The notes under the pieces: model-generated
Seen by the model: only the letters and a program-made list of their open reading frames with translations
What the model was told of the DNA's origin: nothing
The model's database searches: none
Shown here: in pieces, positions 23,466 to 62,197 of the stretch
Layout of the letters: each line of letters starts with the position of its first letter
How positions within the stretch are numbered: the first letter of the stretch is position 1
Source: Shigella phage CT01
DNA length: 64,000 nucleotides
Sequence record: OK018184
Reading direction: 5' to 3' (one strand)
Program-made: the position numbers and the translations under genes

Positions 23466-23525
23466 TTTGTGTTCCTCATGTTATGTCAGTAAAATTATTA
23501 TAACACAACACGAGGGACTTGTAAA

Positions 23526-25583
23526 CTACATTTTGAACTTTTTAGACATTTCGTTGATGTTAACCAAAGAAGCCAAGATTTGAGAAACTTCGTTTTCCTC
23601 TTCTTTTGATTCTTCTACAAGGAATTGATTAAATCCAGCCATTGGACGAACTTCACCAGTTTCCATCAGGTGGTCGCCATCATATACCGATTCTTCTAAT
23701 TGTTCAGAAGGAGGAACGATTGTGCCTTCGATTAGATACTTGTTATAAGCAGTTTCTTTCATCATGTACGTACTCACTTTATTAATCTTCAGTAAAATTC
23801 CACGTGGTAAAATAACTTCAGCTTCTGATGGAAATCCTGATAAATGACCCGGAACGATAACTTTGATTCGCTCAGCTCCTTTAATTACCATACCCACGCT
23901 AGTTTCAGCATCTTCATTCGCATAAGCAGAGTGACTGCCCATATGCATTAAATCTTCAGCATCAACTGAACCTTCTCCTTCACCAGAAAATACTGCACCA
24001 GAATCATCTAGAGCCATATAGTTTTTACCATACTCACCGAAGATATTTGGTTTAAGCGATGTGGATACGAAGTTCTTGAAATAGAACATTTTATTTTCAA
24101 TATTATGACGTAAAGTTTTAAAGGTAACTTCTTGTCCACGGTAAAGTGTAGTTCCTGGAGGAAGAACTGATCCTTTGGCAAAGGCAGAATCCATTGTCTC
24201 GATGTGTTTAATAGCTCGTTCCATGTATTCTTCACGTGTAGAATCTGGTTTACCTAAAAGGAACGAGTTCATTTCAACATATGAATCTGCACAATAATCT
24301 TCAATTACATCAGACTCAGCCTGAGTTAATCCTTTTGGAGTTACTTCAGTACTTGCATATTCATACGCTTGAGAAGCAGACTCATTAATCAATTTATAAA
24401 TGCCATTCATGACAAATTGAATAATAGCTACCTTTTCATCTGGCGTGGCTTTAGAACCTTTAACTAAATCATTGACAATTTTCTTAATAACATCAAAACT
24501 ATTAGAAATATTAATGTCAGCAAGATCGCTTAAAATTTTATCGGTTTTATAATCAAAAAATTCTTTATTCTTTAAATATTCTTGAGAACCTTGATATGTT
24601 ATATCGCTCTGTAACTTGATAGATGGATCACGTAAACGTGCATGAGCCAATGCAATATGATTTCGGAAGCTTTCTAGTTCATAATCACTAGATTTAAAAC
24701 GAGAAGCACTTCTCATACCACCGATAGCTCCTTTGCTGAAGTTTGAACCAACCTGAATAACGCCGGAGTTCATTGGTCCTTCTGCTTTATATACCGGAAC
24801 TTTAGATTCAAACTCTTGATATTTCTTAGCAGCGAAGCTATCACCCTGAAGTGAAGCATCGACAGTAGAGTATTGAGCTTGTGCTGCTAATCGACGACTA
24901 ATTTTAGTTTTCTGAATAACAGCTTGATCCGTGCGCTTATCATTTTCTAAAGCAATAGAAGCAGCAACAGCAACAGCTTTAGGAACAGCATTGCCTGTTT
25001 TAACATCTACATAAACATCACCAACCTTTGATTCAACTTTTGTGAATAACTCAGTTGAAATAGGAGGTACACCTGGAATGTCTTCTAAATTGGCATTTTT
25101 ACGGTAAACCATAATATATGCATATTTCTTATCATAGTCCCAGATTTCTTTTAAAAGAACATATCGACCTGCTCCTTTAGTACGTACTAAACGGTCGGCA
25201 ATAACCTGCATTTGACGAGCTGCGCCATTTGTTTTACTTTTTAGTACGCGGAATAAGCATGCGTCAATTTTATACTGTTTCATTGTTTGAAGAGCAGTAT
25301 CAAAAACGGCATTAATGACACCAATTGGATTTCCACCCAAGTTTTTAAGTTTAACTAATGATAGTTTCTCATTAACACCTATCATTACGATATGCATCAT
25401 TTTATCGCCTGGCTTAACATTTTTATTTGTATCACCACCAGAGGTGTATGTACAAAATCTAAATCCAGGAAGCACACTTTCTTCGCCTGCTTGAATAGCA
25501 AAAATTTGAGGTATTTTATGCTTCGGATTTAAGTTAACAACCGGCGCTTCGGCGCCGTCAAATAATTCTGTAATAAGTTCCAT
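23526..25583 (-). CDS. Alt-like ADP-ribosyltransferase paralogue (second copy)
   Basis: 685 aa; N-terminus MELITELFD shared with adjacent alt; ART motifs R (TLYRGQ), STS (VSTSL), E-x-E (SEAEV) intact. Confidence 0.8.
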   Translation of the reverse strand: MELITELFDGAEAPVVNLNPKHKIPQIFAIQAGEESVLPGFRFCTYTSGGDTNKNVKPGDKMMHIVMIGVNEKLSLVKLKNLGGNPIGVINAVFDTALQTMKQYKIDACLFRVLKSKTNGAARQMQVIADRLVRTKGAGRYVLLKEIWDYDKKYAYIMVYRKNANLEDIPGVPPISTELFTKVESKVGDVYVDVKTGNAVPKAVAVAASIALENDKRTDQAVIQKTKISRRLAAQAQYSTVDASLQGDSFAAKKYQEFESKVPVYKAEGPMNSGVIQVGSNFSKGAIGGMRSASRFKSSDYELESFRNHIALAHARLRDPSIKLQSDITYQGSQEYLKNKEFFDYKTDKILSDLADINISNSFDVIKKIVNDLVKGSKATPDEKVAIIQFVMNGIYKLINESASQAYEYASTEVTPKGLTQAESDVIEDYCADSYVEMNSFLLGKPDSTREEYMERAIKHIETMDSAFAKGSVLPPGTTLYRGQEVTFKTLRHNIENKMFYFKNFVSTSLKPNIFGEYGKNYMALDDSGAVFSGEGEGSVDAEDLMHMGSHSAYANEDAETSVGMVIKGAERIKVIVPGHLSGFPSEAEVILPRGILLKINKVSTYMMKETAYNKYLIEGTIVPPSEQLEESVYDGDHLMETGEVRPMAGFNQFLVEESKEEENEVSQILASLVNINEMSKKFKM

Positions 25584-29378: not shown

Positions 29379-29644
29379 TGCTCATCCTTCAAGGTTTGGT
29401 TTACAGCTCTATTATAAATCAATTCATCATTAAGCTCAGGCAAAGACTTATGATATGTAGTTCTAACTTTATTTCCTTGCATCCAGTGCTTGACGTAAAT
29501 GAAACCTTGCTCTACACATTTTTTAAAAATTCGTTCATCCTTTTGAGCACGGAACTCTGGATTACATCTAAAAAATTGATTTACGTGACCGTAATCACGT
29601 GTAGTATTACCTTCATTTTCATAAATAGTATGAACAACAAACAT
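29375..29644 (-). CDS. Hypothetical protein (T4 30.1 position)
   Basis: 89 aa ORF, overlapping starts/stops. Confidence 0.6.
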   Translation of the reverse strand: MFVVHTIYENEGNTTRDYGHVNQFFRCNPEFRAQKDERIFKKCVEQGFIYVKHWMQGNKVRTTYHKSLPELNDELIYNRAVNQTLKDEQ

Positions 29645-30576
29645 TAGAATGCTCCTTGAAAAATATTATCACCACTAGTAGGTCTATTATACAAATACTC
29701 TATGCCACCAGGTTTAATATAGTTCCATGTCTGAAACGGATGTGTCTGATATGGATGATATAGATGATTATTAGGTCTATTATACAAATACTCTATGCCA
29801 CCAGGTTTAATATAGTTCCATGTCTGAAACGGATGTGTCTGATATGGATGATATAGATGATTATAAGGATTTAATCCAGGCGTTCTCCAGGTAGTGTTCC
29901 AAGGAAAAGAATCGTTTTTAACCATCTTCTCAATTAAATCTTTTATAGCTTTTTCACTATCAAAACTTTCTTTATTTTCCTTCGGCGAAAAAAGCTTATT
30001 TTCTACATCATTCCATGTATAAACTCGCTGCGCAGTTTTTGGAATATTGTCACGCTCTCCTCGAGCCATCCAATAAACAGGAACATTTAATATTTCACTC
30101 GCATGATCGCAGTGATGAGCGAGATCGTCAATATAACAAATTACGTTATATTTCTCTTTTGCCTTTTTGAACAGCTCTTCTTTTGAAGAATCATGACCAC
30201 ACATCATTACTTCCGAGAAAGCACCAGGAAAAAGAGCATTCAAATTAAATTGACGATTCAACAGAGCGTCAATAGAATCACCCAATGCTGTAACAGCTAC
30301 AAAATTATAATCTTCTTTTAATTTGTTAATTACACACAGGGCATCTTTATACGGAGACAAGTAACGAATAAAATCTGAACGATTGTATTTTTCAATTAAC
30401 TTGACGCCAAGTTCTTCGTCACAATTAAAGAGTTTACCCGGAGAAATAAATTTCTCATCTTGGATCATTTTTAAAATATGTTCTAATGGAAGATTATATT
30501 TCTGAGCAAAATAAGGAAGGCCTGATTGCCAGCTTAAACATACTCCATCAATATCAGTTAAAATAGTTGGCTTCAT
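29644..30576 (-). CDS. HAD-superfamily hydrolase-like protein (T4 30.2 position) with internal 31-aa tandem duplication
   Basis: 310 aa; N-terminal ILTDIDGV resembles HAD motif I; 93-bp perfect tandem repeat near C-terminus. Confidence 0.65.
   Translation of the reverse strand: MKPTILTDIDGVCLSWQSGLPYFAQKYNLPLEHILKMIQDEKFISPGKLFNCDEELGVKLIEKYNRSDFIRYLSPYKDALCVINKLKEDYNFVAVTALGDSIDALLNRQFNLNALFPGAFSEVMMCGHDSSKEELFKKAKEKYNVICYIDDLAHHCDHASEILNVPVYWMARGERDNIPKTAQRVYTWNDVENKLFSPKENKESFDSEKAIKDLIEKMVKNDSFPWNTTWRTPGLNPYNHLYHPYQTHPFQTWNYIKPGGIEYLYNRPNNHLYHPYQTHPFQTWNYIKPGGIEYLYNRPTSGDNIFQGAF
29679..29864. repeat. 93-bp perfect tandem duplication (2 copies) inside 30.2 ORF
   Basis: 29679-29771 is identical to 29772-29864; in frame, duplicates 31 codons. 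Confidence 0.9.
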
Positions 30577-39349: not shown

Positions 39350-39412
39350 CATAAAGCCCTCATGTTATGTCAGTAAGTCTACTATAACACAACACGAGGG
39401 ACTTGTAAACAG

Positions 39413-41027: not shown

Positions 41028-42179
41028 TTAAAAGTATTTTTTAAAACTCATCATAACTTTATCATCAACATCATTATCAATCTGTGCAACAAGGTAAGAT
41101 GACAGTTCTACTTCTTGTGGCGCGGATTGAACATTATCAGAATTAAGGTATTCACGAATCCAAGGATATGGATGTTTAACCGGAGCATCGGTAATTGGGC
41201 ATGGAAGACCGCACTGTTTCATACGAGATACAGTTAAGTAATCAATAAAGCTCCACATGCTATTTGTATTTAATCCAGGAACATCGCCATCTTTAAATAA
41301 ATGAACTGCCCAATCTTTTTCTTGGCGGTTAACTTCCATGAAAATATTAACTGCTTCTTGTTCACACTCTTGAGCAATTTTAACCCATTCGCCGCCATCA
41401 GTACCGGATTGAAGTTGACGAATAATATATTGGGTGCCTTTAAGGTGAAGCTGCTCATCACGTGCAATGAACTTCATAATCTTGGCATTACCTTCCATGA
41501 TTTCCATGTTCTTATGGAAGTTAAAGGTACATGCAAAAGATACATAAAAACGAATAGCTTCTAAGGCATTAATAACGTGCAAACAGAGGTAAAGAGATTT
41601 CATTAGTGCTCGTTTAGCTTCGGCTTCTTGTTTAATAGCTCGATTTAAACGAAAAACAGCATCAGGAGATTCTTTAGCTAGTTCTGTAAATTCTTTAGCA
41701 TTTTCCCATTCACGGGTTTTAGTCAGAACATCATCATAATAGCGACCGATAGATTCAGCACGTTTCATGATAGCTTCATCTAGTACAATCTCATCAAATA
41801 CCTTCGATGGATCAGTATAAAGATTTCGCATGATATGGGTATATGAACGGCTATGAATAGTTTCACTAAAAGTCCATGTAGCAACCCATGTATCAAGACT
41901 TGGGTCTGAAATTAATGACATAAGTACTGCAGACGGTGCACGACCCTGAATGCTATCTAGAAGTGATTGATACTTCAGGTTGTTAGTAAAAATATCTTGC
42001 TGATACTGAGGAAGCTTGTTAAATTGTGCAGCATCCATCATTAAGTTTACTTCTTCAGGACGCCAGAAAAATGACAACTGCTTTTCGGTTAAATCTTCAA
42101 AAACTTTATGACGTTGAATATCATAACGCGCAATACCAAGACCTGAACCGAAGAACATAGGTTCTTTTAAAACATTCAA
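41028..42179 (-). CDS. nrdB: Ribonucleotide reductase small subunit NrdB (no intron; start codon uncertain)
   Basis: 383 aa ORF continuous with class Ia R2 sequence; track start is a TTG preceded by an in-frame stop; first ATG is at MFFGSG. Confidence 0.85.
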   Translation of the reverse strand: MNVLKEPMFFGSGLGIARYDIQRHKVFEDLTEKQLSFFWRPEEVNLMMDAAQFNKLPQYQQDIFTNNLKYQSLLDSIQGRAPSAVLMSLISDPSLDTWVATWTFSETIHSRSYTHIMRNLYTDPSKVFDEIVLDEAIMKRAESIGRYYDDVLTKTREWENAKEFTELAKESPDAVFRLNRAIKQEAEAKRALMKSLYLCLHVINALEAIRFYVSFACTFNFHKNMEIMEGNAKIMKFIARDEQLHLKGTQYIIRQLQSGTDGGEWVKIAQECEQEAVNIFMEVNRQEKDWAVHLFKDGDVPGLNTNSMWSFIDYLTVSRMKQCGLPCPITDAPVKHPYPWIREYLNSDNVQSAPQEVELSSYLVAQIDNDVDDKVMMSFKKYF

Positions 42180-42309
42180 CTAAATTTTCCTTATCATCAG
42201 AACCTCCCATACATCTAGGGATTATATGATGTGTCTCTTTATATTCTGATAAAGATTCCCGAGCCTGAGCTCGGGAAATTAGGTCATTATAGATTTTTTG
42301 ATAATTCAT
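42121..42309 (-). pseudogene. Truncated HNH homing-endonuclease remnant (mobE-like position between nrdA and nrdB)
   Basis: 62 aa ORF starting 7 nt after nrdA stop; contains HNH-like HHIIPRCMGGSDDKENLV, then runs out of frame into nrdB. Confidence 0.55.
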
Positions 42310-43091
42310 TACAATTTACACGCTGCGCAATCATCGGCTTTTGGAGTTTCTATTTCGTAATCATCAGTACCGGAACCATCACGAGTATTATGATAATAGA
42401 AGTTTTTAATGCCATAATACCATCCGTATAGCATGTCATCAATCATTACAGACATTGGAACCTTTCCTTTTGGAAAAATCTGCGGGTCATAATATGTATT
42501 CGCTGAAGCTGATTGACATACCCATTTCAGCATAATAGCTACCTGCGTAAGATAAGGTTTATTGCCTTTCTTAGCTAATTTCCACGTATAATCATAGAGG
42601 TCTATGTTATGCTCAATATTGGGCACGACTTGATTAAAGGAACCCTCTTTTGATTCTTTAACAGAGACTGGTCCACGTGGAGGCTCGATACCGTTTGTAC
42701 TGTTAGAAACTTGGGAAGATGACTCACATGGCATAAGTGCTGATAATGTGCTATTACGGATGCCAAAGAGCTTAAGGTCTTCCCGCAGCGACGACCAGTC
42801 ACAAACGTATTTTGGAGCTGCGATTTGGTCAATCTTTTTATTGTACCAGTCGATAGGTAATTCGCCTCGAGACCAACGAGTGTCTGAATAATATTCGCAA
42901 GGTCCTTTTTCTTTGGCGAGCTTAATGGATGCTTTAATGAGCCCATACTGTAATCTCTCAAATAGTTCATGTGTTAAATCGTTAGCATCTTCATAAGAAG
43001 CAAAGTTACTTGCCAGCCAAGCTGCATAGTTCGTAACACCAACACCGAGATTACGACGCTTTTTAGCTTTTAAAGCTTCTGGAACCGGATA

Positions 43092-43239
43092 ATCTTGATA
43101 GTCTAACAGGTTATCAAGTGCACGTACTTGAACTTCTGCTAATTCATTAATTTTATCTTGGTCTTGCCAATCGAAGTTATCCAACACAAATGCAGATAAC
43201 GTGCACAATCCAATTTCAGCATCAGGACTATTCACATCA
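43092..43239. repeat. 148-bp direct repeat, left copy (nrdA codons for DVNSPDAEIG...LLDYQD)
   Basis: Identical to 44099-44246. Confidence 0.9.
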
Positions 43240-44098
43240 GTTCGACGCGTTGTTCTTGAAGACGGATCACATACTTGGACTGCTAAACAAGATTTTAATG
43301 GCGCAGTTAACTTTAACTCTACTGTTAACCTTAATAACACTACCACATTTAAAACAGAAGTTAAATTCCGCTCGTTGAATGCATTCCGTATGTATGGCGG
43401 AAAATTTGGTACATTTTTACGTAATGATGGAGAGAGTCTTTATATTCTTTCCACCGACGAAGATGATCAAGATGGAAACTTTAATACAAATAGACCTTTC
43501 CGTTATGAATTAAGAACTGGTGATGTTACTTTGGGTGGTGTTAGTGGTGCTAACGTTTTAAAATTAAAACGTGATTCTCTCACCGCATTTTTTGGCGGTG
43601 ATATTAACATGAAAGGCACGATGACTTTTGACGCCGGACGTTTAGGGTCACGAGATTATTTTAAATTTAACCATTGGGGTGATAGCAATAACGCTCGTGA
43701 TAACATCATCCAGTTAGAAGATAGTCAAGGCGCTCATTTTTCCACTGAACGTACTTTAGCGACTGGTGCAATTAAAACTCGTTTCTTTGGCGAAACATTC
43801 ACTGATGGTACATTATACCTAAATCAGATGAATAATAGCTCTGAACGATTCCATATCAATAATTGGGGAAATTCAGAAGTTGGTCGCGCGGCAGTGATGG
43901 AAGTCGGTGATTCCAAAGGTTATCACTTCTATACGGAACGCAGGACAGATAACAGTTTGACATTTGATGTTGCTGGCACTTTTACCGTGCATGGACCTAC
44001 CGGGATCACTATCAAAAACTCTGTTGGTGCTCGCCACATCTGGTTTAAAGATGATAGCGATGCAGAAAAGGCTGACAGTTTAATTACCTTCCGCAGTG
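43240..44098 (+). other. Insertion within nrdA: 835-bp fragment of tail fibre gene 37 (sense on + strand) plus 24-bp filler of unknown origin
   Basis: 43240-44074 matches gene 37 at 60946-61436 except that it also contains the 344 bp absent there; 44075-44098 matches neither locus. Confidence 0.85.
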
Positions 44099-44246
44099 AT
44101 CTTGATAGTCTAACAGGTTATCAAGTGCACGTACTTGAACTTCTGCTAATTCATTAATTTTATCTTGGTCTTGCCAATCGAAGTTATCCAACACAAATGC
44201 AGATAACGTGCACAATCCAATTTCAGCATCAGGACTATTCACATCA
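44099..44246. repeat. 148-bp direct repeat, right copy
   Basis: Identical to 43092-43239. Confidence 0.9.
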
Positions 44247-45570
44247 TTTGTTGGAATAGCAATTTCACAACACAAGTTACTCTGGCGAATAGGCGCCTTT
44301 TCACGAATAAACGGAGTATAGTTATTCGTATTATCAATGAACTGCACATAAATCCTTGCTGTTCCTGATCGTTCAGTCATGAGTAATTCAAATAGTTCAC
44401 GGGCTTTAATACGCTTTTTGCGAATATTAGGGTCTTTTTCTGCTGCTTCGTATAATTCGCAGAAACGGTCTTGGTCTTTAAAATAAGAATAATAAAGCTC
44501 ACCACCCATTTCATGCGGACTGAACAAAGTAATGTAATCGTTCTTTCCAAAACGTTCCATCATCAAATCATTCAACTGGACGCCATAATCCATATGACGG
44601 ATACGGTTTTCTTCTACACCTTTGTTATTTTTCAAAACGAGAAGATTTTCAACTTCCAAATGCCAAATAGGATAATAAGCAGTAGCAGCGCCGCCACGAA
44701 TTCCGCCCTGTGAACATGATTTAACAGCAGTCTGAAAATGTTTCCAAAAAGGAATAACACCAGTATGGCGTACTTCACCTGTGCCAATCTTAGAACCTTC
44801 GGCACGAATCATACCAACGTTAATACCGATTCCAGCTCGTTTTGAAATATACTCAACAATTGAAGCAGAAGCCTTATTGATAGACTTCAGCGAATCGCCT
44901 GCCTCAATAACAACGCATGAACTAAATTGCCGAGTCGGAGTACGACATCCAGCCATAATAGGAGTAGGCAGTGAAATCTGTCGAGTAGATACTGCTTCAT
45001 AAAAACGAATAACATGTTTTAATCTATCAACAGGTTCATCTTGATGTAATGCCATTCCAATAGTCATAAATGCAAACTGAGGAGTTTCATAAATTTGACC
45101 AGTGGTTTTATCTTTAACGAGATATTTTTCTTTTAATTGCATCGCCCCGGAATAAGTAAATTCCATATCCCGCTCATGCTTAATTTTTGATTCTAAAAAT
45201 GTAATTTCTTCTGCTGAATATTTTGACAACAATTCAGGGTCGTATTTACCTTCATTTACACAGTAAGAAATATGGTCAATAAATGAACGTGGTTCATATT
45301 GCCCGTAAACATGCTTACGAAGAGCAAACATTAAACACCGTGCAGCTACGTATTGATAATCAGGCTCTTCAACTGAAATAGAATTCGCAGCAGCCTTAAT
45401 TACAATGGTTTGAATGTCATCAGTGGTCATTCCATCACGGAGATATGATTTAATATTTTCATATAATTCATAAGGATCTACAGATGTTCCTTCAGCTGCC
45501 CAAGATAAAACTTTAATAATTTTTTGCGGGTCAAAGCTTTGAGAAACACCACTACTTTTGATAACATTAA

Positions 45571-45897
45571 TTAATTGCATAAGTCCTCAACTTGAAAATC
45601 GTCTTTAAACAATCGGTTAACTATATGAGCTATTATATCACCATGACACGGCTTTGGTTTACATGTGCATCCTAGCCTCATTCCACGTAAAGGCTCTAAA
45701 TGTGCTTTAGTTATTTCTCCGGATTTAATTCGACGTATAAAATCTTTTTTGAATAATTCAATGGCAGCCTCCCGGCTGCCAGCATCTTTACCGACGTAAT
45801 TTCCCCAAAATGTACCACGGTGAATATTAACATCAAAGTCGGATTTATATTTATTCACTACTTGGCATAGACGGCCCGCGCGGTGATAATTTGTCAT
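45571..45897 (-). CDS. Hypothetical protein upstream of nrdA
   Basis: 108 aa ORF; [11 protein letters not shown] cysteine motif. Confidence 0.55.
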
Positions 45898-49834: not shown

Positions 49835-50743
49835 TTAAAGGTCATTCAAAAGGTCATCCAGATCCGTGTCATCAGCACTAGATGAACTGCCAGAGCTTGA
49901 GCTCATAAAATCATCTTCAGTTTTTGTTTTGAAGTCATCAACATTGAATGCATCCAAATCATCAGCAACTTTATCAGCTTTCTTAGCGGCAGTTGCTGCG
50001 GCACCGCCCATAGCAGCAGTTCCCATAACTTGACTGAACTTAGTGCTCAGTTCTTCAAACGATTTGAATTTATCTTTAGAAGTCATTTCAGAAAGGTCAA
50101 CCATTTGTTCGAACAGTTCTTTCTGGAAAGATTCATCATCAATGTTTGGAATCGCAGATTGATTCAGGAATTTAGATTCATCGTAGTTACTAAAACCAGA
50201 AACTTGTTTAACTTTCAGTACAAAGTTAGCACCTTCCCACGGACAAGTTACATCAACCGGAGTTTCACCCATTTCAACATCAACTGCAATCATTGCATTG
50301 ATTTTATCCCAGATTTTCTTACCAAAACGGTATTTAAATACTTTACCTTCATTTTCTGGAGCAGCTGGGTCTTTTACTACAAGAATGTTAGCCCAGTAAG
50401 AAGTTTTACGTTTAACAAGACCGTACTCTTTATTGTCAGTGTTATACAAATCATTTTTACTGATGTACTGACATACTGGACAAGAATCGTAATCACCGTG
50501 GGTAGATGAACAGTTTTCAATATACCATTTACCATTTTTCTTGAAACCGTGATTTACAAGAATTGCGAATGGTGCTTGTTCATCATTTTTAGACGGAAGA
50601 AAACGAATTACTGCTTGACCGTTACCCGCATTATCGAGTTTCAGTTTCCACTCGCCTTTATCTTCAGAAGAAAAACTACCTTTATTTCCAGCCAGTTTAG
50701 CCATTTGTGCAGCGAGTTCAGCAGTAGATTTACGTTTAAACAT
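49835..50743 (-). CDS. 32: Single-stranded DNA-binding protein gp32
   Basis: 302 aa; matches recalled T4 gp32 ([17 protein letters not shown]..., C-terminal acidic serine-rich tail). Confidence 0.95.
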
Positions 50744-50990
50744 TTTTATTTCCTTTTTAATTTAATTAACAGTTGGTGCTATGACGATGTATGACCTCAT
50801 AGCTGGTCAGTGAGATAATTATAATCTATTTATAATAAGCAATTAATACTTACAAGATTTCACAGTTTCAATGAAAACACTTTTGGCTTTCTGTGAATCA
50901 ATATTTAAAATTTTTCTATAAGCCTTTAACTTTATAGAATAATTATTCCAGACTAAATTATCAGTCTGTTCATCATGTTTATCAATTATA
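50453..50990. repeat. 538-bp direct repeat, copy 1 (gene 32 first 97 codons + gene 32 leader + last 49 codons of gene 59)
   Basis: Identical to 51054-51591. Confidence 0.9.
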
Positions 50991-51344
50991 ATTCGAACTG
51001 ATCTGTGTTTGTGCATTTGGGCATATGTTTGCGCGCGTAAAGCAGGCTGGTCGATTTTTACTGATGTACTGACATACTGGACAAGAATCGTAATCACCGT
51101 GGGTAGATGAACAGTTTTCAATATACCATTTACCATTTTTCTTGAAACCGTGATTTACAAGAATTGCGAATGGTGCTTGTTCATCATTTTTAGACGGAAG
51201 AAAACGAATTACTGCTTGACCGTTACCCGCATTATCGAGTTTCAGTTTCCACTCGCCTTTATCTTCAGAAGAAAAACTACCTTTATTTCCAGCCAGTTTA
51301 GCCATTTGTGCAGCGAGTTCAGCAGTAGATTTACGTTTAAACAT
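50982..51344 (-). pseudogene. Truncated duplicate of gene 32 5' end (97 gp32 codons fused to 23 junction codons)
   Basis: 120 aa ORF identical to gp32 through ...VCQYISKN, then diverges in the 63-bp filler; carries a second copy of the gene 32 leader. Confidence 0.75.
50991..51053. other. 63-bp junction filler of unknown origin between the two repeat copies
   Basis: Does not match flanking phage sequence; higher GC than its surroundings. Confidence 0.7.
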
Positions 51345-51591
51345 TTTTATTTCCTTTTTAATTTAATTAACAGTTGGTGCTATGACGATGTATGACCTCA
51401 TAGCTGGTCAGTGAGATAATTATAATCTATTTATAATAAGCAATTAATACTTACAAGATTTCACAGTTTCAATGAAAACACTTTTGGCTTTCTGTGAATC
51501 AATATTTAAAATTTTTCTATAAGCCTTTAACTTTATAGAATAATTATTCCAGACTAAATTATCAGTCTGTTCATCATGTTTATCAATTATA
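51054..51591. repeat. 538-bp direct repeat, copy 2
   Basis: Identical to 50453-50990. Confidence 0.9.
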
Positions 51592-52097
51592 TTTAAAAAC
51601 GAATCAAGCAAGATAAACGTCTCAAACGAAATTATATTCGATTGAAGTAGTTTAAAAATATAACTTGATTGAACTTTTGGATTATACTCAAAGATTTCTT
51701 TAAAAGCAGAAACTTCAACTTTTTTACTAAAATAGTAAATATTGCGAATATCTTCTTCAAACTTAAATTTAATTTGCTTTAAGCGTCCGATATATTCACG
51801 ATAAAACACAAGTGCATCAGCGTCAGAGATGTCACCAATCCAAGCATCTTGGTTAGCAACAAGATTGCTTATAAAGATTAAAGCAAGTTCCTTTAATTTA
51901 TATTTTTCTGATAACTTCTGGAAAAAATACTTATCCCTTCGCTTTTGATAAGCGGCATCAGACACCCGCATGCACCAATTATACTTAATTACATCATACT
52001 TTCCATTCATATGTTGTTTTATCATTAAGTATAATTTATAAACTGATTTACCATCAATATATCTTTCACCACCAGCAGGCATGCGGAGTTTAATCAT
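51444..52097 (-). CDS. 59: Helicase loader gp59
   Basis: 217 aa, T4 gp59 length and sequence. Confidence 0.92.
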   Translation of the reverse strand: MIKLRMPAGGERYIDGKSVYKLYLMIKQHMNGKYDVIKYNWCMRVSDAAYQKRRDKYFFQKLSEKYKLKELALIFISNLVANQDAWIGDISDADALVFYREYIGRLKQIKFKFEEDIRNIYYFSKKVEVSAFKEIFEYNPKVQSSYIFKLLQSNIISFETFILLDSFLNIIDKHDEQTDNLVWNNYSIKLKAYRKILNIDSQKAKSVFIETVKSCKY

Positions 52098-59466: not shown

Positions 59467-62197
59467 ATGGCTACTTTAAAACAAATACAATTTAAAAGAA
59501 GCAAAACCGCAGGTCAACTTCCTGCTGCTTCAGTATTAGCCGAAGGTGAATTGGCTATTAATTTAAAAGATAAAACAATTTTCACAAAAGATGACTCAGG
59601 CAATGTTATAGAATTAGGTTTAAAATATGGAGGAACAATTGATGGTTCTTTAACTGTTAATGGAAATATAATTGGAAATTTAACAGGTAACGCTGCAACT
59701 GCAACGAAATTAAAAACAGCACGAAAAATTAATGGTATATCCTTTGATGGGTCAAAAGATATCACGCTAACTCCATCCGACATAAATGTCAATAGCACAA
59801 CGTTTATAAAAAATAACGGCGAATTACCTGTTGATGCTAATTTAGATACGTATGGGCCTGTTGAAGAATATCTTGGAGTTTGGTCGAAAGCAACTTCAAC
59901 CAACGCTCAACCAGCAAATAAATTTCCAGAAAACAATGCTGTAGGTGTGCTAGAAGTATTTGTGGCCGGTCAATTTGCTGGTACTCAGAGATATACAACT
60001 AGATACGGAAATGTTTATATTCGTTCCTTGACTGCTACATGGAACGGAGTAAATGGTCCGTGGAGTGTGTGGCGAAATATTCAATCCGGTACTCGTTCAC
60101 TGTCAACAACAATTGATCTTAATGATCTAGGAGGTGCTGAACATCTTGGTTTGTGGCGAAATAGTTCAAATTCCATTGCTACCTTTGACAGAAATTTCCC
60201 AGAAGAGGGGTCGTCAGCTCAAGGTCTTTTGGAAGTATATGAAGGTGGAAACTATTCTCGTACACAAAGATATACAACCAGATTTGGTGTTGTTTATACT
60301 CGCTGTCTTACTGCTGCGTGGGATGCTTCTGCGCCTAAATGGGGACCGTGGCAACAAGTCGGTAATGTCACACCGGCGACTTTCTATGACGGAAACCTGA
60401 ATGATTTTAAAACTCCTGGGTTATATAATATTTTAGGCACTGATGCCGTTATTAATTGTCCTACAGGCGAAGGTTTACCAGCCGTTATTGTTGGTTTGCT
60501 GGAAGTTAAACAGCGTGCTTCTGGCGGTGCTATTTTCCAAAAATTTACTACTGCCGGAACAGGTGCAACTACCCGCGATCGTATTTTTGAGCGCGCATAT
60601 ACCGGCGGTGTGTGGGGTGAATGGAACGAAGTATACACATCTTATTCTCTACCAATTACTTTGGGTATGGGCGGTATTAAATCTAACTTAGCAGAGTTAG
60701 ACTGGCAAGCATTTGATTTTGTTCCTGGTAGTATGTTTAGCGTTCCTTTGAACAAAATAAAGAACATGCCAGCTAATATGGATTGGGGTACGATTGACGG
60801 AAACTTAATTATGTTTTCTGTTGGTCCTAGCGAGCACACCAGCACAGGACGTACTGTTCAGGTTTGGCGTGGAACTGTATCCCAGACAAACTATCGTTAT
60901 TTTGTCGTTCGTGTATTCGGTAATCCAGGGAGTAGAACATGTACAGTTCGACGCGTTGTTCTTGAAGACGGATCACATACTTGGACTGCTAAACAAGATT
61001 TTAATGGCGCAGTTAACTTTAACTCTACTGTTAACCTTAATAACACTACCACATTTAAAACAGAAGTTAAATTCCGCTCGTTGAATGCAAGGCGCTCATT
61101 TTTCCACTGAACGTACTTTAGCGACTGGTGCAATTAAAACTCGTTTCTTTGGCGAAACATTCACTGATGGTACATTATACCTAAATCAGATGAATAATAG
61201 CTCTGAACGATTCCATATCAATAATTGGGGAAATTCAGAAGTTGGTCGCGCGGCAGTGATGGAAGTCGGTGATTCCAAAGGTTATCACTTCTATACGGAA
61301 CGCAGGACAGATAACAGTTTGACATTTGATGTTGCTGGCACTTTTACCGTGCATGGACCTACCGGGATCACTATCAAAAACTCTGTTGGTGCTCGCCACA
61401 TCTGGTTTAAAGATGATAGCGATGCAGAAAAGGCTGTTATCTGGGCTACAGATGAGGGTATTTTACATATTCGCAATAATCATGAGGGTTCATTTAGTCA
61501 TCACTTCCAGGGTGCAATGATTAAACTGGAAGGGCGTGTTCCTTATGGTGCAGCAAAAGGGCTTATTCGAGGCGAGATAGACGGTGGTGCATATGTTGCA
61601 TGGAGAGACCGCCCTGCTGGTTTGTTGGTTGACTGCCAGAAAAGTATTGACAGTGCTCATGCTGTTTGGAAAGCGGTTGATTGGGGGCGTCAATATATCG
61701 CTGCTATGGACGTTCATTGTCCGGGTGATGGTAATAATACTGCGGCAGCGGTTCTTCATGTTCAGGCTGCTGATTATCAATTCCATGCAAGCGGAGAATT
61801 TCATGCCACTGGTAACGGGAACTTTAACGATGTGTATATTCGTTCCGATGGTCGTCTGAAAATTAATGTTGAAGATTATACAGGAAATGCGTTAAGTTTG
61901 ATCGGCAAACTGAAAGTGAAAACTTACGATAAAGTTAAATCTCTTAAAGACCGTGAAATTATCGGTCACGAGATCGGCATTATCGCACAGGATTTACAAG
62001 AAATATTACCGGAAGCTGTAAAATCTTCAAAGGTTGGCAATCTTGATAATCCAGACGATGTTCTGACAATTTCTAACTCTGCTGTGAATGCTCTTTTAAT
62101 TAAGGCTATTCAGGAAATGAGTAAAGAAATTAAAGAATTGAAAACTCCTTTCTTTACTAAAATTGCTCGCAAAATTAGTAAATATTTTAAATTCTAA
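59467..62197 (+). pseudogene. 37: Long tail fibre distal subunit gp37, frameshifted by a 344-bp internal deletion
   Basis: Split into ORFs 59467-61110 and 61085-62197; the missing 344 bp (junction at 61089/61090) is present in the copy inside nrdA; C-terminus has a chaperone-like domain. Confidence 0.85.

Follow-up and report, generated by a model that had tools for sequence, protein, structure and literature searches.

The genome of Shigella phage CT01 (record OK018184), of which we analysed a stretch of 64,000 nt ("the window"), carries a ribonucleotide reductase large-subunit gene, nrdA, that is interrupted on the minus strand by a 1007-bp extra unit. The unit is made up of a 148-bp repeat of nrdA itself, 835-837 bp of sequence from the tail-fibre gene 37 and 24 orphan bases. 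The reading we prefer, at a probability of roughly 0.45, is that this is a recent loss-of-function scar left by serial, microhomology-guided template switching, and that the true phase of the repeats is a viable isomer of the arrangement as written. The structure is best read as a private, one-off scar of a known kind, rather than as a mobile element, a functional module or a new system. As no difference separates the insert from the phage's own type of gene 37 (100% identity), the event would be recent.

The interruption involves the following parts of nrdA, with open reading frames (ORFs) given where they apply:

43092-43239: first copy of the direct repeat, nrdA codons ~446-494, including the AEIGLCTLSAF active-site cysteine region
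44099-44246: second copy of the direct repeat, 148 bp of nrdA
44084-45580, minus strand: 5′ nrdA ORF, 494 NrdA codons and four filler codons (HCGR) followed by a stop
42309-43239, minus strand: 3′ part of nrdA, codons ~446-754, Ribonuc_red_lgC profile positions 222-523 of 523

Both a repeat finder and self-BLAST recovered the direct repeat, whose copies are identical at 148 of 148 positions and lie 1007 nt apart from start to start. The match extends to 151 nt with one mismatch, and a perfect repeat of this length is far beyond chance. An earlier reading of the DNA made without database searches (the sequence-only reading) had reported this perfect repeat and placed the interruption after codon 494, and we recovered both. 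Its further claim, that neither half can encode a complete enzyme, agrees with the domain content. Profile searches found an ATP-cone, the all-alpha domain Ribonuc_red_lgN and barrel positions 1-268 of 523 in the 5′ ORF, and the rest of the barrel is in the 3′ part, the two halves overlapping by 49 codons. Neither half encodes a class Ia NrdA, in which an ATP-cone, an all-alpha domain and a complete 10-stranded barrel are joined in one polypeptide. The 3′ part, which is 100% identical to the phages SF2-1 and P922, lies inside a 345-aa ORF whose GTG start falls in antisense gene 37 sequence; neither a Shine-Dalgarno sequence nor an ATG was found at the joint. Because removal of the 1007-bp unit in silico restores a protein amino-acid identical to the NrdA of SF2-1, the interrupted gene is a disrupted NrdA gene. 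Comparison with relatives, which the sequence-only reading had proposed, showed that nrdA normally lacks the insertion: the architecture was found in 0 of ~840 relatives.

The interior of the unit can be divided as follows:

43240-44074, plus strand: gene 37 fragment, codons 494-771, 100% identical to the intact SF2-1 gene 37, with a Gp34_trimer-like domain
43238-43383, plus strand: left homology arm, 146 bp found identically in resident gene 37 at 60944-61089
43384-43727, plus strand: single-copy segment, 344 nt present once in the window and exactly what the resident gene 37 has lost
43726-44074, plus strand: right homology arm, 349 bp found identically in resident gene 37 at 61088-61436
44075-44098: orphan filler, 24 nt, ACAGTTTAATTACCTTCCGCAGTG, which read on the minus strand gives HCGR and a TAA stop to the 5′ nrdA ORF

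The interval 43238-44074 is contiguous, colinear and 100% identical to gene 37 of Shigella phage SF2-1, and the Gp34_trimer-like tail-fibre domain is the only domain that a profile search detected in the insert. As had been proposed, the fragment has the same sense as the resident gene 37 about 17.7 kb away (offset 17,706) and is antisense to nrdA; a 318-aa chimeric ORF (43201-44157) embeds it. The claim that 835 bp match gene 37 needs qualification, as it holds against the SF2-1 gene, and the resident gene matches over only 146 and 349 bp. The copied interval contains all 344 nt deleted from the resident gene. The insert therefore holds the only copy of this segment and is more than a simple extra copy. 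At 148 and 146 bp, the nrdA repeat and the left gene 37 arm have almost the same length, and both are near a read length of 150 nt.

The 24 bases match neither locus, as the sequence-only reading had stated. A search with ACAGTTTAATTACCTTCCGCAGTG found no source in the window (allowing up to 3 mismatches), the phage collection, E. coli genomes or plasmids, and no match in IMG/VR or in 100,044 species genomes. We also considered a derivation from downstream gene 37 sequence and rejected it, as the likeness is weak and the local alignment score in the window lies within the range of shuffled sequence.

Several other kinds of insertion can be set aside. There are 0 inverted repeats in 42000-45500, the insert has no transposase or endonuclease domain and the duplication is 148 bp long, all of which speaks against insertion of a mobile element and agrees with the earlier view that the repeats are not a transposon target-site duplication. 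A group I intron, intein or homing endonuclease insertion was rejected, as the insert is colinear with gene 37 codons 494-771 and gave no HNH, GIY-YIG or LAGLIDADG match (no Rfam scan was made). Nor does the insert mark a mosaic boundary: the first mismatch to SF2-1 is met 830 bp from the joints in nrdA and 430 bp from them in gene 37. No late promoter (TATAAATA) was found near the insert, and sigma-70-like sites and terminators occur there at background level.

The counterpart of the insertion is a broken resident gene 37:

59467-61110, plus strand: 5′ ORF of the resident gene 37, 547 aa, running out of frame and ending 7 codons past the deletion joint; no Pfam family
61088-61089, plus strand: joint of the 344-nt deletion, with CA microhomology
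61085-62197, plus strand: 3′ ORF of the resident gene 37, 370 aa, with a Peptidase_S74 chaperone domain

The deletion shifts the frame and so leaves two ORFs of 547 and 370 aa, the first without a Pfam family because its Gp34_trimer-like domain is cut. All other phage records of the collection that match across 61088/61089 have the extra sequence, each aligning in two pieces, and on contigs with an identical gp38 the gp37 protein has 1024 or 1080 aa, apart from one end-truncated product of 1007 aa. In a gp37 of the T2 type, one ORF of ~1024 aa holds both a Gp34_trimer-like domain and, at its C-terminus, a Peptidase_S74 chaperone domain. The gene as written encodes no such protein, and given the 344-nt frameshift deletion the phage as written would lack a working distal subunit of the long tail fibre (gene 37-null). 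Loss of functional gp37 is lethal to a T-even phage. Just beyond the joint is the run CAUUUUUCC (61097-61110), which includes U5, where a +1 slip of tRNA-Phe would lead to the correct frame before the stop at 61108-61110. Low-level read-through by such a slip, of low efficiency and giving an internally deleted gp37, is conceivable.

The written arrangement is one of several that are compatible with the same joints. We built an isomer by moving the 344-nt segment from the ectopic copy into the resident gene 37, and compared its k-mer spectrum with that of the window. The spectra are identical at every k up to 147; short-read k-mers are thus unable to separate the written form from the isomer. 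The isomer encodes an intact gp37 of 1024 aa, which has 4 differences from that of SF2-1 and the single ORF and both domains of the T2 type, and its nrdA carries a 663-nt unit (148 of nrdA, 144 and 347 of gene 37, and 24). Viewed as a graph, the nrdA block and both gene 37 blocks are visited twice, and the data amount to a wild-type path plus one 663-nt cycle. Three readings have all the joints in common: the written gene 37-null form, the viable isomer, and a wild type accompanied by a separate chimeric circle or tandem array. The extra cycles that the rearrangements of the window imply are alike in size, at 663 nt here and 601 nt (538+63) for a duplication described below.

Most simply, a single repeat structure read in two phases accounts for both the "deletion" in gene 37 and the "intact" ectopic copy, and the written phase is probably wrong. 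The two forms would be interconvertible in vivo by a double crossover; the 146- and 349-bp arms exceed the 50-150 nt that T4 homologous recombination needs (PMC8262927). The deleted ectopic copy in the viable isomer would be a liability, able to convert gene 37 to null, and recombination between the 148-bp repeats should pop the unit out, making the structure short-lived.

From these joints we infer a course of events that would have taken place in vivo, during recombination-dependent replication or double-strand-break repair at the nrd locus. A growing 3′ end would have departed from nrdA at ...CACATCA and re-primed on gene 37 through the dinucleotide CA. The polymerase would then have copied gene 37, skipping 344 nt at a second CA joint in the same event, picked up the 24 orphan nt and re-entered nrdA 148 nt behind its point of departure. 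Such a leave-and-return path would yield a 148-bp tandem duplication with a novel joint holding templated foreign sequence. Its original product would have been a viable phage in which gene 37 was intact and nrdA carried a chimeric unit of 663 nt, and the written arrangement would be that product mis-phased by the assembler, or its double-crossover isomer. With the 344-nt skip placed in the same multi-jump event, neither a coincidence nor a lethal genotype is required.

The evidence for a switching mechanism lies partly in the geometry, as a target duplication surrounds an insert copied from elsewhere and departure and return fall in one locus, which is how template switching is recognised. 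In addition, no part of the 344-nt deletion falls outside the 837-bp copied interval (p=0.003 genome-wide), and this favours a single linked event over two that were independent. Among the origins listed by the sequence-only reading (a circle, template switching, an engineered construct or a misassembly), all are formally possible, and the 2-bp microhomology and leave-and-return geometry favour template switching.

The joints can be assessed together with four further structural changes that are private to this phage, namely a deletion at mobE/nrdB, a duplication of 538 bp, a tandem duplication of 93 bp and the deletion in gene 37 described above. The first of these affects the genes next to nrdA:

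42121-42309, minus strand: remnant of a mobE-like HNH homing endonuclease gene, a 62-aa ORF, with a 5′ terminator hairpin at 42277-42256
41028-42179, minus strand: nrdB, native start gone, longest ORF starting at TTG

A private 628-bp deletion, with its joint at 42174-42181, has removed the rest of mobE, the nrdB promoter region and nucleotides 1-26 of nrdB; AT is common to both sides of the joint, with an imperfect CAACT in addition. As the 3′ half of nrdA lacks both a ribosome-binding site and a start, and the nrdB start is deleted, both subunits appear to be inactivated and the phage would have lost its aerobic ribonucleotide reductase. This enzyme is dispensable to T4 on ordinary hosts.

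The second change is a perfect direct duplication of 538 bp (50453-50990 and 51054-51591) around a 63-nt filler (50991-51053). The 3′ end of gene 59, the first 97 codons of gene 32 and the intergenic stretch between the two genes fall within it, yet an intact copy of each gene is kept (gene 32 at 49835-50743, gene 59 at 51444-52097). The filler contains a 27-nt exact core of E. coli mdtD and a reverse-strand open frame of 20 residues resembling MdtD. An exact copy of a bacterial gene was rejected as its source, since a 35-mer had zero exact matches in the 100,044 species genomes. The third change is an in-frame tandem duplication of 93 bp at 29676-29861, whose joint shares TA. It repeats 31 aa (NHLYHPYQTHPFQTWNYIKPGGIEYLYNRP) close to the C-terminal end of a protein of 310 aa encoded on the minus strand at 29644-30576. 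The extra copy is missing from every top match listed among ~500 related records, which align in two pieces.

In this sequence, a random joint has a microhomology of at least 2 nt with a probability of 0.18. CA is shared at the joint from nrdA to gene 37 and again at that of the gene 37 deletion. All four filler-free joints (the two of the unit, mobE/nrdB and the 93-bp duplication) have at least 2 bp (4/4; ~0.001); the two joints of the unit have 2 bp each, and significance is reached only by pooling them with the other private joints. T4 is known to rejoin broken genomes at minihomologies of 3-13 nt in a UvsX-dependent manner (PMC8262927), and tandem repeats form at microhomology near segB in T6 (PMC13096335).

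Three of the rearrangements (the deletion at mobE/nrdB, the insertion in nrdA and the duplication at genes 59/32) fall within 9.4 kb (p=0.009). This cluster is bracketed by homing-endonuclease sites, mobE between nrdA and nrdB on one side and, on the other, the intergenic site between genes 59 and 32, where P922 has a homing endonuclease gene. MobE nicks nrdB at nucleotides 122-126, and SegG targets gene 32. With homing-endonuclease sites at both the nrd locus and the junction of genes 59 and 32, breaks made in a mixed infection are a plausible trigger.

Chimeras formed by multiple displacement amplification are mostly inverted. Every junction here is in direct orientation, and we rejected such chimeras as the source.

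The window belongs to a T2/T6-type Tequatrovirus with a glycine-rich gp38 adhesin. Its nearest relatives, SF2-1 and P922, are 99.7% identical over nrdA and mosaic elsewhere, and the backbone is that of a wild-type-like mosaic isolate, not T4, T2 or T6. We screened the 64-kb window for broken genes with the SF2-1 and P922 reference ORFs of at least 100 aa. Only nrdA and gene 37 were flagged (the mobE/nrdB damage was found separately), which argues against a noisy long-read assembly or general sequencing noise. The private rearrangements were found in none of the several hundred related genomes that match each region, and scans of IMG/VR and JGI metagenome contigs found neither the joint of nrdA with gene 37 nor that of the gene 37 deletion. 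An exact-protein look-up gave no match for the truncated NrdA, the gp37 3′ ORF, gp34 or the protein with the 31-aa repeat.

A number of points weigh against template switching with a viable isomer. The junctions and their phase come from the assembled sequence, and the 2-bp microhomologies are shorter than the 3-13 nt of T4 minihomology repair (PMC8262927). No template for the 24-nt filler was found in the collections searched, and none of the joints occurs in any relative or public contig scanned. Five private rearrangements that are perfect, and so young, within 31 kb are many for a plaque-purified phage, and direct repeats of 148 and 538 bp should be prone to quick loss by T4 recombination; both of these would fit an artefact too. 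Finally, the 148-bp repeat and the 146-bp arm are suspiciously similar in length, and both are near a read length of 150 nt.

The strongest competitor, a serious one although less probable than the preferred reading, is an artefact of assembly or finishing, in which case the real phage has an intact nrdA and an intact gene 37. A minor chimera of ~663 nt, circular or tandem, might have been threaded into the main assembly path, or contig joins left untrimmed and an 861-nt contig misplaced. Total content is conserved and the 344-nt segment is single-copy, as if it had been misplaced rather than duplicated. The blocks of 148, 146 and 349 bp, two of them about a read long, are the overlaps expected of neighbouring pieces in their true order. 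The written gene 37-null genome is not a self-sufficient clone, its joints occur in no other genome and its unstable repeats appear fixed. The 538-bp repeat with 63 nt of bacterial-like sequence 7 kb away, as well as the 93-bp tandem repeat, resemble untrimmed joins. However, plain concatenation would give random joints, yet all four filler-free joints have microhomology of at least 2 bp. Low-depth chimeric edges are normally dropped by assemblers, ligation chimeras do not look like departure from nrdA and return 148 nt upstream, and the remainder of the window is clean.

We are considerably more doubtful that the written form is literally true, as a gene 37-null genome with a promoterless internal repair template. 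This could be an engineered reporter grown with complementation, or a defective recombinant in a mixed stock. Such a design would explain a frameshifted full-length gene and a doubly truncated donor, in the same orientation and placed in a dispensable gene. The 146- and 349-bp arms are sufficient for T4 homologous recombination, which has a minimum of 50-150 nt (PMC8262927), and the fragment is codon-aligned (494-771) if the ambiguous bases are given to its neighbours. However, searches of the phage, E. coli and plasmid collections turned up no vector sequence, cloning scar, marker or nuclease site, and the backbone is a wild-type-like mosaic rather than T4, T2 or T6. A designer would have had no use for the 148-bp duplication, the 2-bp microhomologies or the other three private rearrangements, and in a natural stock repaired gene 37-plus recombinants would soon overgrow.

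Integration of the Campbell type, in which a single recombination in the 148-bp homology would have brought into nrdA a small chimeric circle of 1007 or 663 nt made of 148 bp of nrdA, pieces of gene 37 and the 24 nt, seems more improbable again. It predicts the observed order of repeat, insert and repeat, 148 bp is enough for T4 homologous recombination (PMC8262927), and decomposition of the graph yields just such a cycle. However, the circle needs an earlier event with the same joints, a step that is added with no gain in explanation. We know of no such small chimeric DNA circles in T-even infections. From the final sequence alone, Campbell integration and template switching are inseparable.

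A use for the insert seems very improbable. The promoterless ectopic segment might serve as an archival donor, whose 146- and 349-bp arms would toggle the tail-fibre gene between null and functional by gene conversion; if true, a virulent T-even phage would be turning its adsorption on and off by recombination, much as silent cassettes produce antigenic variation. To a functional arrangement in the wider sense, either a reductase in pieces like that of Aeh1 or a silent tail-fibre cassette switching gene 37 by gene conversion, we give hardly any credence: the 3′ half does begin between the equivalents of Cys439 and Cys462, the inter-strand region of the Aeh1 split (PMC3045599), and the homology arms would permit gene conversion, but it is largely refuted, as translation signals (no ribosome-binding site or start codon on the 3′ half), nrdB integrity (start and promoter deleted) and conservation (0 of ~840 relatives and no scanned public contig) all fail, there is no endonuclease gene between the halves and there are no tails, and a promoterless donor 100% identical to the resident type adds no diversity.

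Other features of the window were noted in passing. The T4 late-promoter core TATAAATA has 20 copies, versus 8.5 expected from shuffles, oriented with the structural gene blocks; the two copies of the 538-bp duplication contain one core each (minus strand, at 50827 and 51428). In two Campylobacter phage records, MG065686.1 (172651-172687) and MG065691.1 (1436-1472), a 37-nt stretch near the record end is 92% identical to the mdtD-like filler, which suggests that these unannotated records have enterobacterial-like sequence at their assembly ends. A 53-nt sequence (CCTCATGTTATGTCAGTAA...ACACGAGGGACTTGTAAAC) occurs at 23474-23526 and 39358-39410, 15.9 kb apart, with 92% identity. Because both corresponding sites in SF2-1 and P922 have it, it is probably a conserved intergenic regulatory or terminator element.

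The analysis reveals no new genetic system; the structure is either a rearrangement scar of a type already known or an artefact. Should the junctions prove real, they would provide a clean T-even case of multi-step, microhomology-guided template switching that combined a duplication with a templated insertion from 17.7 kb away, and would show loss of dispensable genes and gain of dispersed repeats beside homing-endonuclease sites. The deposited arrangement predicts a fibreless, non-viable phage and its k-mer-equivalent isomer a viable one, which is a warning about annotation and assembly for those who use this genome in host-range or phage-therapy work.

Among known systems, transposons and insertion sequences likewise place an insert between direct target repeats. 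Their target repeats are 2-14 bp long, in contrast to 148 bp here, and the present insert has no terminal inverted repeats or transposase and copies the phage's own gene. Reporters of the DR-GFP type pair a disrupted full-length gene with an internal donor truncated at both ends, and the disrupted gene 37 with its doubly truncated donor in direct orientation is similar; unlike such reporters, it has no engineered nuclease site, marker or cloning scar, and it sits in the backbone of a wild isolate.

The split nrdA of Aeh1 (nrdA-a / mobE / nrdA-b) is also a T4-like nrdA broken in the barrel between active-site cysteines, at a locus frequented by homing endonucleases (PMC3045599). In Aeh1 the insert is a homing endonuclease gene, both halves are translated, tails are needed for assembly and the enzyme works (PMC3045599). 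Here, in contrast, the insert is antisense tail-fibre sequence with no endonuclease gene, the halves overlap by 49 codons, and independent translation and an intact nrdB partner are lacking, the 3′ half having no start and nrdB being damaged. Segmental amplifications in T-even phages, such as the 718-bp tRNA-Tyr/segB repeat of T6, are similarly young, perfect repeats formed at microhomology beside homing-endonuclease genes in phages of the T2/T6 type (PMC13096335). They are selected gains in the dosage of anti-defence loci, whereas here 148 bp are duplicated in a broken gene with no evident benefit.

The closest parallels are microhomology-mediated break-induced replication and fork stalling and template switching (MMBIR/FoSTeS), which were defined in eukaryotes and E. 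coli, together with UvsX-dependent minihomology repair in T4. The T4 study reported joining at 3-13 nt and described deletions (PMC8262927), whereas the CT01 joints share 2 nt, the product is a duplication with an insertion and one joint carries a 24-nt filler for which no template was found. In common with these processes, the CT01 structure has a direct target duplication around sequence copied from another place in its own genome, short (2-nt) microhomology where the pieces join, clustering with other rearrangements and, on the preferred reading, more than one switch within a single event.

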